This document shows positions 4,066 to 12,007 of a stretch of DNA of 16,497 nt, one piece after another. Below the pieces are notes generated by a model. The model searched no databases, was not told where the DNA came from, and saw only the letters and a list, made by a program, of their open reading frames with translations. The stretch's first letter is position 1. Each line of letters begins with the position of its first letter. The DNA is from a virus: the UHGV virus genome UHGV-0097332, one strand, 5' to 3'. Both the position numbers and the translations under genes were made by a program.

Positions 4066-4238
4066 TTCCTCGCACGATGTCTTAGCCACCGGATATCCCA
4101 CAGGTGAGCCGTGTAGTTGAAGGTTTTTACGTCAGATTCTTTTGGGATTGGCTTGCGTTTATTTCTGGAGCGCTTCGTTGGAAGGTATTTGCAGTTTTCG
4201 CAGATGATGTCGGTGATACTTCGTCGCTGTCGTCTCAT
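4062..4238 (-). CDS. ninE: NinE-like small basic protein (58 aa)
   Basis: Hand translation: [58 protein letters not shown]. Resembles lambda NinE (orf-60). Start ATG overlaps the NinB stop (ATGA). Confidence 0.7.
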
Positions 4239-4645
4239 TCATACCTCCTGTCGGTAAATCTGACACCCTGACCAATAGCCCAGGCTGTCGTGTACTCAAT
4301 CAGACTTGCCATGCGCTTCACACTCATCTGCGCGCTGCTTTCGCGAATGTTGACGTATTCGCCTTCAAGCCCGGGCAAAACATCAGCTTCCTGCTTTGTT
4401 GCCACTGCATGACCGCTTATCAACAAAACCTTCCATTGTTCTGGTTTTAACCATTTATCGCACCATTGAACCTGACGTGCGATATCCGCCAGCATCGCGT
4501 GAAATTTTGCGTTCTGGTCAAGGTTGCGCTTGTAGTCAGTAATGCGGATGGTGACTGGCTTGTCTTTATCGAGAGGAGTTTCGAGGATGGCGTTGATTGC
4601 GGCTTGCTGTTGTTGCTTACTTCGGAGGAAGATTGTTTGCTTCAT
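4235..4645 (-). CDS. ninB: NinB (orf-146 family) recombination protein
   Basis: 136-aa ORF with the NinB-like motif [22 protein letters not shown]; first gene of the nin cluster. Confidence 0.82.
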
Positions 4646-4652
4646 CGTTACC

Positions 4653-4859
4653 TCAACTCACAAAACGCCACGCCACTTTTGCTACGACAACAGGCATAAC
4701 ACCGATAATCACCCACAGGAAAATGCTACCGAAAAGCACACCAACCAGGTCTTTACCTTCGCCTACCAGCCGGACAAAACTGCTGGCAACCACAATGAAC
4801 GTCGCCACCATCCACATAGCACCGAGAATCCTCAATGCAGAAAAAATCAACTCAACCAC
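4653..4859 (-). CDS. Hypothetical small membrane protein (68 aa, two predicted transmembrane helices), GTG start
   Basis: Strong ribosome-binding site GGGGGAGAG six nt upstream of a GTG start. Highly hydrophobic product. Lies between the terminator at 4878-4918 and ninB. Confidence 0.4.
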   Translation of the reverse strand: MVELIFSALRILGAMWMVATFIVVASSFVRLVGEGKDLVGVLFGSIFLWVIIGVMPVVVAKVAWRFVS

Positions 4860-4877
4860 GATTTACTCTCCCCCAAA

Positions 4878-4918
4878 TAAAAAGGCCTGCGATTACCAGC
4901 AGGCCTTTATCTTTTTTT
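4878..4918. terminator. Bidirectional intrinsic terminator-like hairpin (possible tR2 analogue)
   Basis: Stem GGCCTGC (4884-4890) / GCAGGCC (4899-4905) with an 8-nt loop, flanked by an A-run upstream and TTTATCTTTTTTT downstream. It therefore looks like a terminator on both strands. Confidence 0.6.
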
Positions 4919-5518
4919 AACACGCTTTCGAGTCCTTTTAGATTTTTCCTTAAGATATTCCGCAAGTTTATCCTCATCATTATTAAATTGAGATAAAAGC
5001 TCATGCTCGCAATTAAGTGCTTTACTCGCATAAGTTCCATATAGTTTCTTTCTTGCTAGTGCTGCTATGAATGCTGCATCTTCTTTGCTATCGAAATACC
5101 CTAACGATATTGTCTTATTTTTATAACCAACATAAGACTTCCACCTGCCAGTTGTCTTATCCCAAGACACTCCAATCGCACCGGATGTGTTTAACCTATT
5201 CCCTACAATGTTTCTTGCATTCTGCTCCTCTGTTGCCAGTCTTAGATTTGAAATCCTATTGTCAAGTCTGTTCCCATTTACATGATCAATAAACTTAGGA
5301 GGCCATTTTTTGTATACATAGAACCAAGCAAGTCTATGCGCATAATACAAAACATTATTTATGCTAATGCATATATAACCACCACTAACACCTCCAGCAA
5401 TACTACCTTTTACTCTTACTACTGAATTTGTTTTTAGCCATTTAAATATTCCTGTTTCTGAGTCATATGATAATGTTGACAGAAGCTCATCGTGATCAAT
5501 TAGTTTTTTTATTCGCAT
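4907..5518 (-). CDS. HNH homing endonuclease with C-terminal AP2-type DNA-binding domain
   Basis: 203-aa ORF. HNH motif region YYAHRLAWFYVYKKWPPKFIDHVNGNRLDNRISNLRLATEEQNARN, then an AP2-like segment GVSWDKTTGRWKSYVGYKNKTISLGYFDSKEDAAFIAA. The gene is markedly AT-rich compared with its flanks. Confidence 0.85.
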   Translation of the reverse strand: MRIKKLIDHDELLSTLSYDSETGIFKWLKTNSVVRVKGSIAGGVSGGYICISINNVLYYAHRLAWFYVYKKWPPKFIDHVNGNRLDNRISNLRLATEEQNARNIVGNRLNTSGAIGVSWDKTTGRWKSYVGYKNKTISLGYFDSKEDAAFIAALARKKLYGTYASKALNCEHELLSQFNNDEDKLAEYLKEKSKRTRKRVKKR

Positions 5519-5596
5519 AAAGAATATACTTAATAATATATACAGTAAGAACCATTAGTAACGATAACCCTGCTATCAGCTCAGTGATGTAGATGG

Positions 5597-6973
5597 TCAT
5601 ACGTCAGCCCCTTGTGCATATCGTCTGCCACGCGCAGCAGGTGCATTTGATGCTGTGCAAATCTGTCTGGCTTCATCCTGGTCACATGCAACAAAGTGTC
5701 CGTTACAGAACCGCTGGTAAACCGTACCAAGTGAGCCAAAACGGTTTTTCGTCACGATGATTTCAGCAAATGGCGCGGCGCTACTGTTCTCGTCATATAC
5801 CGCTTCCCGATAGAGCATGATGATTGAGTCTGCGTCCTGCTCAATGCTTCCTGAATCACGCAAATCTGCGTTTGTCGGGCGTTTGTTTGGTCGCTTCTCA
5901 ACATCGCGTGAAAGCTGACTTAGGGAGATAACAGGCGTTTTCAGGTCTTTCGCCATCGCCTTAAGGCTTCCTGAGATGTGAGCAATTGCGAGGTCGTTGC
6001 GGTCTGCTTTCGGCTTCTCAATCAGGCCAAGATAATCCACCATGATGAGTGAGAGGTTTGGATTTTCCTGTTTGTGTCGTTCTGCGATTGAGCGTATTTC
6101 TTCGACCGATAACCGCGAGGCATCGACTACCCATACATCCAAATCTGCAAGCTGACTCATGCCGTTAGCAACACGCGCCCAGCCTTCGTCATCCATCGAT
6201 GCAGGATTTCGCAGTACGCTAACCGACATCCTCCCGGCGTTGGCAATGCTTCGCTCTGCAATCTGCAATGCGCTCATTTCCATTGAGAAAATCAATACCC
6301 CGCGCCGGACGTCAGAACCAGGAATAACGCGGCTTGCAACGCCTTCGGCAATCTTCAGCGCCAGTTCGGTTTTCCCCATACCAGGACGAGCAGCGATTAT
6401 CACAAGGTCTTCTGCGTTCATCCCTCCGGTGATGGCATCAAGTTCTTCGATTCCGGTCTTCAGGGTATCTGACTCTTCTCCGTTCCTCAGACGCCTGTCA
6501 AGCGTGTCAGTGTAGTCAGTGATGATTTCCCCTAACCGTACAGGTTTAACCTCGTCACGGGGCTTTCTGATGGCTGAGAGACGTTTTACAAGTTCATCCA
6601 TCGCCTGACTCGATGCGTCGATGGTTCCGCTTTGGATTGGTTCACGCATTTCATCCATGATTTTCAGCACCAGACGGCGGTGATAGTTATCCGCGACCAT
6701 TCCGGCATATCCCTTCAGGTTTGCGGCACTCGGGCAGTTTTTGCTGGTCATCAGGATTGACGTGAAATGCTCCTCTCCGCACTCCTCGGCAACCATCAGC
6801 GCGTCGATTAGGTTTCTGTTTCGCGCCTGCTTGCGGATAACCTCGAAGGCTTTTCTGTAGAGCGGAATTGAAAACGCTTCCGGCTCCAGCGTTGCCAGAA
6901 CGTCACTGGCGGTTGGAGTTAATCCACCAATCAGCAGGCCACCGATAACGCTCGCTTCGATATCCTGTCTCAT
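5597..6973 (-). CDS. Replicative DNA helicase, DnaB family (P22 gene-12 type)
   Basis: 458-aa ORF with Walker A GMGKTE, Walker B IMVDYLGL, and DnaB-like motifs. Start overlaps the stop of the upstream initiator gene. Confidence 0.93.
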
Positions 6974-7800
6974 GCAATCCCCCTGTCTGCAAACTTCCCT
7001 TCCCGAACTCCCGTTAACGAGTCTTCTCTCAGCAGGTAATCAAAATCAGCCGTCCAGCCCGTGTCGTTGTCTCCGAAGTAAAACGGCTTGGCCTGATGCA
7101 CAAACGCCCTGACATACGCTCTGAAACCGTCCACGTTTGGCGTTTTCAGTTGCGGGATGATTTTCTTCAGGCGGCGTTTTCGTTTCTCGTTGACCGCAAC
7201 AGCGTGTGGAAGTCTGTCACCGACTTCGGTGTTGTAGGCGTTCAGGAAGGATTCGTAGTCGATTCGTTCTGCCTTGCGACGTTCAGGTTTAACCTGCCCA
7301 TCGCCGCCCCCGTTAGGGGGTAAGGGGGTATTTGTATTTATTGTCTTTTGTATATTGTCTTTTGTGTTTGACTGATTCGGTAAATTGCTTTTTACCGATT
7401 TGGTGAAGGTTTGTTTTACCGAATTGGTAAATGTTTTACCGAATCCGTTAACTTTCGTTTTCCACTCGGAAATGTTTGTATTCATACCAACTTGACGCCC
7501 CACCTGAATGAGAACTCCCATTCTGATAAGCTCGTTTTTGGCGGTAGAGCATTTGGTTGGTGCCATGCCAGTGAGTTCAGCGAACTGTTCGTTTCCGATC
7601 CAATCTATTTTTTTGTTGTAACCGTATGTCTTGCGCCACACAGCCATAACAATCAGTAACTGATGTAGAGTAAGTCCAGAAAGCATGGCGGCTTCTAACA
7701 GTGTGTTTGCAGTCCGAGTGTAGCCATCTTCGAGTTCTGCCACGCGATGCTCCACGACCTCCAGTTGAGGCCTGTAATCAGCTAACTTAACGACGCCCAT
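6970..7800 (-). CDS. Replication initiator, lambda O-like (iteron-binding N-terminus, contains ori)
   Basis: 276-aa ORF with an AGGAG ribosome-binding site. An internal low-complexity linker ([17 protein letters not shown]...) is encoded by the iteron/AT-rich DNA, as in lambda O. Followed by the helicase gene. Confidence 0.85.
7327..7452. repeat. Origin of replication: AT-rich region plus at least three direct iterons inside the initiator gene
   Basis: Iterons TTTTACCGATTTGG (7391-7404), TTTTACCGAATTGG (7414-7427), TTTTACCGAATCCG (7434-7447), with a related inverted copy near 7377-7388. Adjacent AT-rich block with two copies of ATTGTCTTTTGT (7339-7367). Confidence 0.7.
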
Positions 7801-7980: not shown

Positions 7981-8277
7981 TCAGAATTGCATATCAATTT
8001 GCTTAGAGTCCCCGGCGGCCACCGGGGATTTTTTCTTTGTGATTCCATCAAGCGCATACTTAAAAGCCCTACTAATCGGACTGATGTCTGATGCCATTCC
8101 GAAAGCACACAAGACCGAAGCAATAAATCTCCAGTCCGTTCTGCTTATCTTCGATTCATGACAGCCAATCATCTTTGCCAGACCGCGCTGGGTAAGCGTT
8201 GACAGGTTGATGAGTAAATCTGTTTCTGCGCGATCAATTTCTCGCTGTGTTGGCTTGCTGTAACTTGCTTGTGTCAT
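7981..8277 (-). CDS. cII: CII-like transcriptional activator
   Basis: 98-aa ORF in the position after cro and nutR. Helix-turn-helix segment (GCHESKISRTDW) and C-terminal tail KKKSPVAAGDSKQIDMQF resemble lambda CII (SQISRWKRDW ... KKRPAATERSEQIQMEF). It is a homologue, not identical. Confidence 0.78.
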   Translation of the reverse strand: MTQASYSKPTQREIDRAETDLLINLSTLTQRGLAKMIGCHESKISRTDWRFIASVLCAFGMASDISPISRAFKYALDGITKKKSPVAAGDSKQIDMQF

Positions 8278-9436: not shown

Positions 9437-9874
9437 ATGATTAAAGAACGTATTTCTTATATCATTCCGATTGCGATGGATGAAGGCAACCCAGTAACTC
9501 CGGTTCTTATCTATGAAATGGATAAAGACTCCCATGAAGTGGATCTATCATTTGGCGCTTTTTTTATCGGCCTTAAGGCTACAAAAAAATATTCCATAGG
9601 CATTGAGGTTTTCAATGCTCAAGAAATACCGATACCAATTGACACAAAACTGTACTCCAACCATAAGTTTTTTACGGTAGCAGAAGCCAACGATGGAGAA
9701 ACCATCGTATCAACTTCTATGAGAATTAACTTCCCAAGGGTGAAAATTATCAAGCCTGGGATATTCGAAGTTAGAGCATCACTGGTTAATCCTGATAAAG
9801 GCGAAGTAATTGATGTAAAAAGTTCGTTTTTTGACGTGAAGATAACAGGATCAGTTCGCGATGAGTTTAGATAA
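9437..9874 (+). CDS. Hypothetical 145-aa protein in the rexA position (first gene of the candidate lysogen-expressed cassette)
   Basis: ORF starts 8 nt after the cI stop and is AT-rich. No transmembrane segment or recognisable motif. It is not RexA (lambda RexA is about 279 aa and unrelated in sequence, as recalled). Confidence 0.7.
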   Translation: MIKERISYIIPIAMDEGNPVTPVLIYEMDKDSHEVDLSFGAFFIGLKATKKYSIGIEVFNAQEIPIPIDTKLYSNHKFFTVAEANDGETIVSTSMRINFPRVKIIKPGIFEVRASLVNPDKGEVIDVKSSFFDVKITGSVRDEFR

Positions 9875-10232
9875 CAAGGTTGCTCAGCTTCGTCCAAATC
9901 AAAACATATCTCGCCCAATTGGACACTATTCCACTGATGATGCATACTCACGGCATGGTGGAGGAAACGGCGGAGGTAACATGCTTGAGGCTAGAGTTGC
10001 AAAGCTAGAGTCTGATGTTGAATACATCAAGCGCGATCTCGCTGAAGTAAAGTCAGATATAAAATCTGTAGATTCTCGTCTGTCAGGTATTGAGACAAGC
10101 ATTAGCTCAGCAAAAATCACCATCAAGGCATCTGCGGTCGTTGTCAGTTTCGTGTTCGCATTTTGCGCCTACATTTTTGGAAGTTATGTTTCCAAAATCC
10201 TTGATGCCTTAAACGGACTCGTTCTTAAGTAA
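9861..10232 (+). CDS. Hypothetical small coiled-coil protein with C-terminal transmembrane helix, in the rexB position (alternative start ATG 9981 gives 83 aa)
   Basis: 123-aa ORF overlapping the upstream ORF by 14 nt. Gly-rich segment, then coiled-coil heptads (LEARVAKLESDVEYIKRDLAEVKSDIKSVDSRL), then hydrophobic helix AVVVSFVFAFCAYIFGSYV. GGAGG motifs lie just upstream of the internal ATG at 9981. Followed directly by a terminator. Confidence 0.7.
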   Translation: MSLDNKVAQLRPNQNISRPIGHYSTDDAYSRHGGGNGGGNMLEARVAKLESDVEYIKRDLAEVKSDIKSVDSRLSGIETSISSAKITIKASAVVVSFVFAFCAYIFGSYVSKILDALNGLVLK

Positions 10233-11512: not shown

Positions 11513-12007
11513 TTAATAATTTGTCAGCGGCGGAACATATACAGGCTTAGGGGCTGGCGCTCTATACATCCGGTATTCATTCTTACAGCGAGGACATGAA
11601 TGCACAAAGAATCCATTAGATTTTATAGTAACCGTGCTTGGTTGAAGTATCGATATTTTATGTTCGCCGAAGCAATGTGCACAAAGGTTATGCTGCTGAA
11701 TAGAAGGATCGGAATGACTCTTAGGTCGATACACGACAGAACCACCTTCAGTTGTATGAAGTTCATAATTCTCAGCTTGCACAACAAACATCTTGATTTT
11801 TCTATTTTCATCTCGAAGCTTCATTGCGATCTCCTTCTCGGCCTGATAAAGGCCAGAGAGCTCCGCATTAAGCATCTGTAAGTCAGTTATTCTTTGGTGT
11901 AGATCACCAATAGCTTTAGCGATAACCGCATCGTCTCTGGTTTCTTTTATTGTCTTCAGCAGATCATAAGCCTGTTTCGCGGCAGTTATACCAGATAACA
12001 CATCCAT
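11513..12007 (-). CDS. Hypothetical coiled-coil protein with C-terminal zinc-ribbon (CxxC...CxxC), antisense to the pL operon
   Basis: 164-aa ORF on the opposite strand to all flanking early-left genes. AGAGAG ribosome-binding site upstream of the ATG. C-terminal motif CAHCFGEHK...SCPRCKNEY. AT-rich. Confidence 0.6.
   Translation of the reverse strand: MDVLSGITAAKQAYDLLKTIKETRDDAVIAKAIGDLHQRITDLQMLNAELSGLYQAEKEIAMKLRDENRKIKMFVVQAENYELHTTEGGSVVYRPKSHSDPSIQQHNLCAHCFGEHKISILQPSTVTIKSNGFFVHSCPRCKNEYRMYRAPAPKPVYVPPLTNY

Follow-up and report, generated by a model that had tools for sequence, protein, structure and literature searches.

What is a markedly AT-rich open reading frame (ORF) doing between the replicative helicase and the nin genes of a lambdoid prophage, and did it enter as a selfish insertion or descend with the phage? 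The question is posed by UHGV virus genome UHGV-0097332, analysed here as a single stretch of 16,497 nucleotides (nt) and hereafter called the window, which is a lambdoid prophage segment with cI and cro of the lambda type. An initial annotation, made from the letters of the sequence, had described positions 4878-5596 as a selfish island bracketed by a hairpin terminator and carrying a homing endonuclease with an HNH motif and an AP2-type domain. We consider it probable that the locus holds a free-standing, I-HmuI-like HNH_3-AP2 homing-endonuclease cassette, which occupies one site inside ninA between the last replication gene and the terminator tR2. Nuclease activity and homing are properties that we infer from sequence.

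The compositional contrast is the most immediate evidence. Guanine-plus-cytosine (GC) content is 0.343 in the insert and 0.348 in the ORF, against 0.519 in the helicase gene, 0.489 in ninB and 0.462 over the whole window, while GC at third codon positions falls to 0.255 in the ORF versus 0.52-0.55 in the flanking genes. The lowest-GC interval of 665 base pairs (bp) in the 16.5 kilobases (kb) starts at 4903, with 19 of 15,832 overlapping intervals equally low. The placement of the HNH-AP2 ORF in an AT-rich stretch, far more so than the helicase and nin genes around it, is thereby confirmed as real and far from chance.

The limits of the cassette were defined by base-precise junctions against alleles that lack it, namely those of lambda, Kapi1, 611R6 and TL-2011a. 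On the transcribed strand the empty junction reads …ATGACCATCTACATCACTGAGCTAATAACAGGCCTGCTGGTAATCGCAGGCCTTTTTATTTGGGGGAGAG… and the occupied junction …ATGACCATCTACATCACTGAGCTGATAGCAGG[GTTATCG … AAAAAAAGATAAAGG]CCTGCTGGTAATCGCAGGCCTTTTT…. The cassette is a discrete 665-bp segment of foreign composition. The earlier extent of 4878-5596 does enclose it, but the true insert is slightly narrower, at approximately 4907-5571. The features on which the argument depends are as follows, the window features all lying on the minus strand.

4907-5571 (-): inserted AT-rich cassette, 665 bp, with ends uncertain within a 3-nt CCT repeat (coding-strand AGG); from comparison of junctions with empty-site alleles.
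4907-5518 (-): predicted HNH_3 + AP2 endonuclease gene, 203 amino acids (aa), with its TAA stop at 4907-4909; from Pfam, PHROG, alignment to I-HmuI and AlphaFold/Foldseek.
5496-5600 (-): ninA', 34 codons; from translation, and annotated in HK022 and SH2026Stx1.
5574-5600 (-): left conserved flank, 27 bp, the ninA start ATGACCATCTACATCACTGAGCTGATA; common to occupied and empty alleles.
4881-4908 (-): tR2 stem-loop, then TTTTTATTT, outside the insert; from a terminator scan, RNA folding and identity to lambda.
5574-5600 and 4860-4906 (-): remnants of the empty site in the window.
Extract L008, 1068-1140: lambda empty-site allele.
Extract L004, 1953-2036: Kapi1 empty-site allele.

The imperfect similarity of the insert ends over 8-11 nt (CTAATAGCAGG / TTAAAAACAGA) was considered as a possible target-site duplication and set aside as too weak; the 3-nt CCT overlap alone is firm.

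The site into which the cassette fits is itself well defined. It runs from the upstream gene through ATGA and ninA to tR2, and measures 73 bp. In Kapi1 the same helicase as in the window is followed by 72 bases and then by the same 68-aa ORF, and the empty sequence follows ren in lambda and another gene in TL-2011a. The empty allele encodes a 27-codon ninA mini-ORF, intact as a 27-aa NinA in Kapi1, whose ATG overlaps the stop of the upstream gene (ATGA) and whose own stop overlaps with the following gene's start. The whole tR2 hairpin falls within this coding sequence in empty alleles, and the record of phage Nil2 annotates a 'ninA' with tR2 inside. The 27-bp ninA start is kept behind unrelated upstream genes in occupied and empty alleles alike, and the full 73-bp ninA/tR2 site is 95-100% conserved across most matching phage records and Escherichia coli genomes. 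With an intact site in these four phages, the gene is not conserved at this position; this clean empty site in relatives, together with the deviant composition, supports the earlier view of a selfish insertion over that of an ancestral phage gene.

The hairpin requires a correction. Being confined to the downstream side, it does not bracket the ORF as had been proposed, nor does it mark an insert boundary. A terminator scan places it at a 10-bp stem with 6 GC pairs, followed by a T-run on the minus strand, and its fold is stable at -17 to -19 kcal/mol (centroid -17.4, z -2.6). It is base-for-base the lambda sequence at 40.6 kb. Across the collections used throughout (5426 complete E. coli genomes and 395 phage records with a match), the 41 bp at 4870-4910 occur in 1936 of the E. 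coli genomes, with or without the HNH gene. The hairpin is the resident, ancestral lambdoid tR2 and stands outside the insert, the last two bases of the HNH TAA stop (4907-4909) sitting in its stem. A translated ORF enters tR2 in both alleles (ninA in one, the HNH gene in the other); termination could be controlled in a translation-dependent manner, and a ribosome reaching tR2 could modulate it.

The reading of the 203-aa product as an HNH nuclease with an AP2-type domain is borne out by profile searches. Pfam HNH_3 (PF13392) matched residues 58-102 over its full model (1-46) at 57.8 bits, against a cut-off of 24.8, and PHROG 99, 'HNH endonuclease', matched at 3e-72. Pfam AP2 (PF00847) matched residues 114-161 with an E-value (E) of 1e-7 and 32.6 bits, for a cut-off of 33.3. 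Precomputed PF00847 matches are present in most homologues, and a sequence search of the PDB matched the AP2 domain of WRI1 (E 0.0015). An NCBIfam search with the 203-aa protein gave no match, and PADLOC found no defence system in it and one weak match, to 'homing endonuclease' (9.6e-4). The protein is, as judged from these matches, an I-HmuI-like HNH_3 nuclease fused to a predicted AP2 DNA-binding domain.

Conservation and structure prediction point the same way. Residues D78, H79, N87, R88 and N91 are invariant across 31 aligned homologues, and at least 90% of them have N100. In a direct alignment, whose sequence similarity is marginal (E 0.39), D78/H79/N100 fall on D74/H75/N96 of I-HmuI, and the catalytic HNH residues expected from the initial annotation are present. 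In 2004 Shen and colleagues reportedly described these I-HmuI residues as the metal ligands and the general base. The AlphaFold model from the 31-homologue alignment (mean predicted local distance difference test score, pLDDT, 88.3) begins with a sheet at the N terminus, continues through a beta-beta-alpha core and a three-stranded sheet plus helix (117-163), and closes with a long basic helix at the C terminus; the AP2 part comprises strands 117-120, 125-132 and 135-142 and helix 145-163. Foldseek against the PDB superposed this part on the AP2 domains of TEM1 (7et5; root-mean-square deviation, rmsd, 1.1 Å over 51 columns) and AtERF1 (1gcc; rmsd 1.4 Å), and matched I-HmuI (1u3e_M) at probability 1.00 over 110 columns; probabilities for the AP2 domains and I-HmuI were 0.99-1.00, while whole-chain E-values were weak. 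In the model the predicted His-Me finger active site is intact, within a beta-beta-alpha metal fold accompanied by a putative N-terminal DNA-binding sheet. The basic C-terminal helix (approximately 168-203, the last ~35 residues, …EYLKEKSKRTRKRVKKR) is missing in most homologues.

Alleles of the gene differ little. The ORF is intact in the four copies compared (the window, HK022, PA28 and phage 1717), pairwise differences amount to 3-11 nucleotides, and silent and replacement changes are about equally frequent, a balance that suggests mild purifying selection, the numbers being small. In the first strand of the AP2 domain (codons 120-122, 5152-5160) the window allele carries D120/T122, against Y120/P122 in HK022, PA28 and 1717; D is the commoner residue at position 120 in distant homologues, and the difference could bear on DNA specificity. 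Residue 202 is K in the window and 1717 and N in HK022 and PA28. At 90% identity the protein cluster holds 521 member sequences, and the next full-length relatives share at most 50% identity. The clade is therefore tight and isolated, as expected of a recent import from an AT-rich source.

Disrupted and recombinant copies were also encountered. In Stx2 phage 1717 (L003 3701-6142) ISEc8 lies in the leader, between the ninA start and the HNH gene, and in E. coli L3_CS7_E2980 (L012 1816-2908) IS100 sits inside the HNH gene and leaves separate 'HNH' and 'AP2' fragments. A P22-like metagenomic contig (Logan SRR10380363; L011 5918-6516) carries a hybrid endonuclease gene, which matches the window exactly over the ninA' leader and HNH codons 1-66 and continues as another, GC-richer HNH_3 gene. 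The switch point is the conserved AHRLAWF motif, and the second part adjoins rusA directly, with no tR2. The hybrid shows that two nuclease genes have recombined within the coding sequence.

How such a gene might be expressed bears on what kind of element it is. A consensus scan for sigma-70-like promoters found none on the coding strand between 4600 and 5700, and no GGAG-like Shine-Dalgarno sequence was seen by eye upstream of the HNH ATG; the neighbouring starts have one. The only terminator at the cassette is the resident tR2. The possibility of a moron, with its own promoter and terminator, was dropped because the scan found nothing promoter-like on the coding strand, the terminator being tR2. 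The insertion instead rebuilds ninA into the 34-codon ninA', of which the first 9 codons are resident and the remainder come from the cassette. Its ATG lies in the ATGA overlap with the helicase TGA, its 3' end overlaps the HNH start by 23 nt and stops 20 nt past it, and it is annotated as HK022_56 and as SH2026Stx1 gp28. The hydrophobic ninA' peptide was not taken as evidence of a cassette-borne ninA homologue, as AT-rich DNA yields such peptides by chance. Because the HNH gene lacks a promoter and a Shine-Dalgarno sequence of its own and overlaps ninA', it most likely rides the early transcript from pR, silent in the lysogen and expressed at a low level in lytic growth. Its translation is possibly coupled to that of ninA'. 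The selfish element first envisaged is thus upheld as a discrete foreign segment, but it is not self-contained: it interrupts ninA and brings neither a promoter nor a ribosome-binding site.

The distribution of the cassette was then set against that of its site. The intact 73-bp empty site is present in 1885 of the 5426 E. coli genomes and in 375 of the 395 phage records. The cassette occurs in 126 E. coli genomes at 138 places (at most 3 per genome, all at least 98% identical) and in 19 phage records, including HK022, PA28, phage 1717, WGPS4/6 and SH2026Stx1. Comparison of these counts with those of the intact site therefore gives an occupancy of approximately 5%. An intact site is missing from 20 phage records, of which 19 are the carriers and the last, Lahn3, begins inside the site; no other type of insert was found at ninA/tR2 in the phage collection. 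When one genome per bacterial species was scanned, the cassette was located in E. coli only, the two other matches being distant AP2 fragments in Paenibacillus and in a Lachnospiraceae genome. Some E. coli genomes hold two or three copies, for example Z1323CEC0006 (NZ_CP148466.1), presumably in different lambdoid prophages; the one copy inspected in that genome sits behind a Toprim primase-helicase.

Phage records, E. coli genomes and IMG/VR together supplied 33 occupied loci at which mobility relative to the flanks was assessed, and 31 of these share a span of 717 bp between the ninA ATG and the tR2 end. Clustering of the flanking 300 bp gave 7 unrelated groups upstream and 9 groups downstream, in at least 16 combinations by a manual tally of the cluster lists; five upstream clusters were identified as two DnaB helicase types, ren, a Toprim primase-helicase and the TL-2011a-type gene. 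Phages with and without the cassette intermingle within one helicase type, and its presence does not track helicase similarity: in a small sample, the window helicase is 97.8-98.0% identical to those of empty-site phages versus 97.2-97.3% to those of other carriers. The cassette is found at a single site only, beside many unrelated flanks, and is absent from the clean site of most relatives.

A homing cycle consistent with these observations may be outlined. The HNH gene would be transcribed from pR with O and the helicase gene, upstream of tR2, would be silent in the lysogen and would be translated at a low level, perhaps through coupling to ninA'. During lytic growth or co-induction the enzyme would bind DNA as an extended monomer, contacting it through the N-terminal sheet, both the HNH and AP2 domains and the basic C-terminal helix. 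It would then nick or cut ninA/tR2, where that region is uninterrupted, in a lambdoid genome sharing the cell through co-residence or co-infection. Red or RecA repair, acting on the conserved flanks (27 bp on the left, ~45-60 bp on the right), would copy the cassette into the broken genome or favour cassette-linked markers. Lytic timing would suit such a cycle, other lambdoid genomes then replicating and recombination functions being present.

Several points weigh against an active homing nuclease and temper our confidence. Firstly, the AP2 score falls 0.7 bits below the curated Pfam cut-off, and our literature search found no experimental study of this particular protein. Secondly, occupancy is ~5% and carriers differ by 1-2% within the cassette; the cassette is therefore not sweeping quickly. 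Thirdly, no co-conversion gradient was detected in the adjacent helicase gene, in a small sample compared by 150-nt blocks (four carriers and two empty-site phages), and the helicase comparison alone is therefore no proof of active homing. Finally, the conserved flanks are short for efficient repair, and the ninA/tR2 joint is a general lambdoid mosaic boundary, around which ordinary homologous recombination could shuffle the flanks of a passive cassette.

This last point leads to the most serious alternative, which we judge unlikely though far from negligible: that the cassette was acquired once by illegitimate recombination and then reshuffled by homologous recombination at ninA/tR2, with the nuclease inactive on phage DNA or irrelevant to spread. 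The 3-nt CCT microhomology fits such an acquisition, and the 73-bp ninA/tR2 sequence is a universal lambdoid joint between unrelated modules. The missing co-conversion signal, the ~5% frequency with 1-2% internal divergence, and the copies disrupted by insertion sequences (ISEc8 in 1717, IS100 in L3_CS7_E2980) are likewise what a passenger might display. However, the left homology extends over only 27 bp and yet seven upstream contexts are found in some 35 loci; a general slot should gather diverse cargo, but no other gene occupies the exact site in the phage collection; and the active-site residues and reading frame are retained. We continue to favour the homing cassette.

It is a good deal less probable that the gene has been domesticated, either as a weapon against competing lambdoid phages (by marker exclusion, or in a ren-like manner) or as a source of nicks that start recombination-dependent replication. 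The position of the gene is suggestive in this respect: it closes the replication module, either adjoining ren or replacing it, is predicted to be co-transcribed with O and the helicase, keeps its frame intact and carries some signal of purifying selection. Goodrich-Blair and Shub are also said to have found, in 1996, that markers flanking I-HmuI and I-HmuII are competitively favoured when infections are mixed, which would count for such a function. The cassette is, however, absent from ~95% of otherwise similar phages and is therefore dispensable, and PADLOC returned the weak 'homing endonuclease' match (9.6e-4) and no defence system. Domestication would in any case overlap with homing and does not exclude it. 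A packaging role of the HK97 gp74 type, in which an HNH protein acts with terminase in cos cleavage, was entertained because a lambdoid phage here encodes an HNH protein and HK022 is related to HK97, but it is effectively refuted by position (the early right operon, between helicase and nin genes, not next to terminase genes), by family (HNH_3 of the I-HmuI group, with an AP2 domain) and by dispensability (presence and absence among near-identical phages, and absence from ~95% of sites).

If the cassette does home, its effects may extend beyond its own spread. The 73-bp ninA/tR2 joint is the most conserved short sequence common to lambda-, P22-, HK97- and Shiga-toxin (Stx)-type phages. A doubtful proposal is that the enzyme targets this joint and that its nicks help to make the replication/nin boundary a hotspot of module exchange, a selfish nuclease thereby driving lambdoid mosaicism.

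The order of the genes around the cassette on the minus strand is cII, an O-type initiator, a DnaB-type helicase, the HNH-AP2 ORF, the hairpin, the 68-aa ORF, ninB and further nin genes, beyond which lie RusA, NinH, Q and lysis genes. The neighbours with assigned coordinates are listed below.

7981-8277 (-): cII.
6970-7800 (-): O-type initiator.
5597-6973 (-): DnaB-type replicative helicase, directly upstream of the HNH-AP2 ORF; Pfam DnaB_C at 8.4e-79 and a DnaB N-terminal domain.
4653-4859 (-): 68-aa membrane ORF, phrog_1165, the first gene after tR2; its GTG start is preceded by the Shine-Dalgarno sequence GGGGGAGAG, and the same gene is found in Kapi1 and HK022.
4235-4645 (-): ninB (Orf recombination mediator); Pfam NinB at 3e-54.

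Two further loci in the window deserve mention. At 9437-10232 (+), directly after the lambda-type cI and at the position of rexA/rexB, there are two AT-rich ORFs, of 145 aa (GC 0.37) and 123 aa (GC 0.43). These correspond to PHROGs 5893 and 6136 and belong to no Pfam family; PADLOC gave a weak CorA-like match (0.0039), and the closest phage DNA is that of genes 44/45 of Salmonella phage epsilon34, at 77%. The pair may be a prophage-expressed exclusion system replacing rex. At 11513-12007 (-) a 164-aa ORF (PHROG 1244, no Pfam family) lies downstream of N, on the opposite strand inside the leftward early operon.

Optional nuclease genes of comparable habit are familiar from the T-even phages, whose seg and mob genes are intergenic, AT-rich and optional, lie between conserved genes, and spread by cutting the allele without them, followed by repair from the carrier. 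The seg products are, however, GIY-YIG enzymes and the mob products belong to another HNH group (group 1 in PMC5714182), and seg/mob activity has been demonstrated where that of the window protein is inferred. HNH_3 proteins with an AP2 module, by contrast, fall in group 2 of the His-Me finger homing endonucleases (PMC5714182), AP2 being a recognised DNA-binding module (PMC5714182; PMC10448857). I-HmuI of Bacillus phage SPO1 (PDB 1U3E) shares with the window protein the HNH_3 His-Me finger group, the Asp-His...Asn site and the N-terminal sheet with HNH core; it is encoded in a group I intron and ends in a helix-turn-helix, whereas the window protein is free-standing and ends in AP2 and a basic helix. 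Characterised relatives of the window protein, I-HmuI among them, are nickases, and by analogy we assume the same activity here.

HNH-AP2 proteins were classed as homing endonucleases by Magnani et al. 2004, as related in PMC10448857, and the phage, cyanobacterial and ciliate members (Magnani et al. 2004; Wessler 2005) have the same N-terminal HNH and C-terminal AP2. The 'IPA-HNH' genes of the Vibrio phage ICP1 (PMC10448857) share this architecture and lie at genetic-exchange boundaries. They are, however, too divergent for the Pfam HNH_3 model, which the window protein matches strongly, and unlike them the window-type gene resides in temperate lambdoid phages at a single defined site. The nearest known counterpart is gene 57 of HK022 (gp57, HK022_57, NP_597900.1, 'putative endonuclease'), which is the same gene, of 203 aa, with 98-99% nucleotide identity and the same insertion point; further RefSeq copies are in PA28, Stx2 phage 1717, WGPS4/6 and SH2026Stx1. 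The flanks differ from those of the window, HK022 having another DnaB-type helicase upstream and PA28 having ren. Labels such as 'HNH endonuclease' or 'homing endonuclease' already exist in PA28, phage 1717 and RefSeq E. coli genomes.

Both the gene and its kind are therefore already known, the HNH-AP2 class having been described since 2004. What is added here is the precise site, its occupancy, the diversity of flanks, the lack of expression signals belonging to the cassette and the correction regarding the terminator. Together they furnish a clean, well-bounded example of a selfish nuclease in temperate coliphages, Shiga-toxin phages among them. Because the empty site is lambda's own sequence, the usual genetic tools of that phage could serve to test homing. 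At the replication/nin boundary, an active enzyme could skew recombination between co-resident prophages and the inheritance of their markers, and would connect this locus with the idea that nuclease genes mark the boundaries of genetic exchange in phages (PMC10448857).

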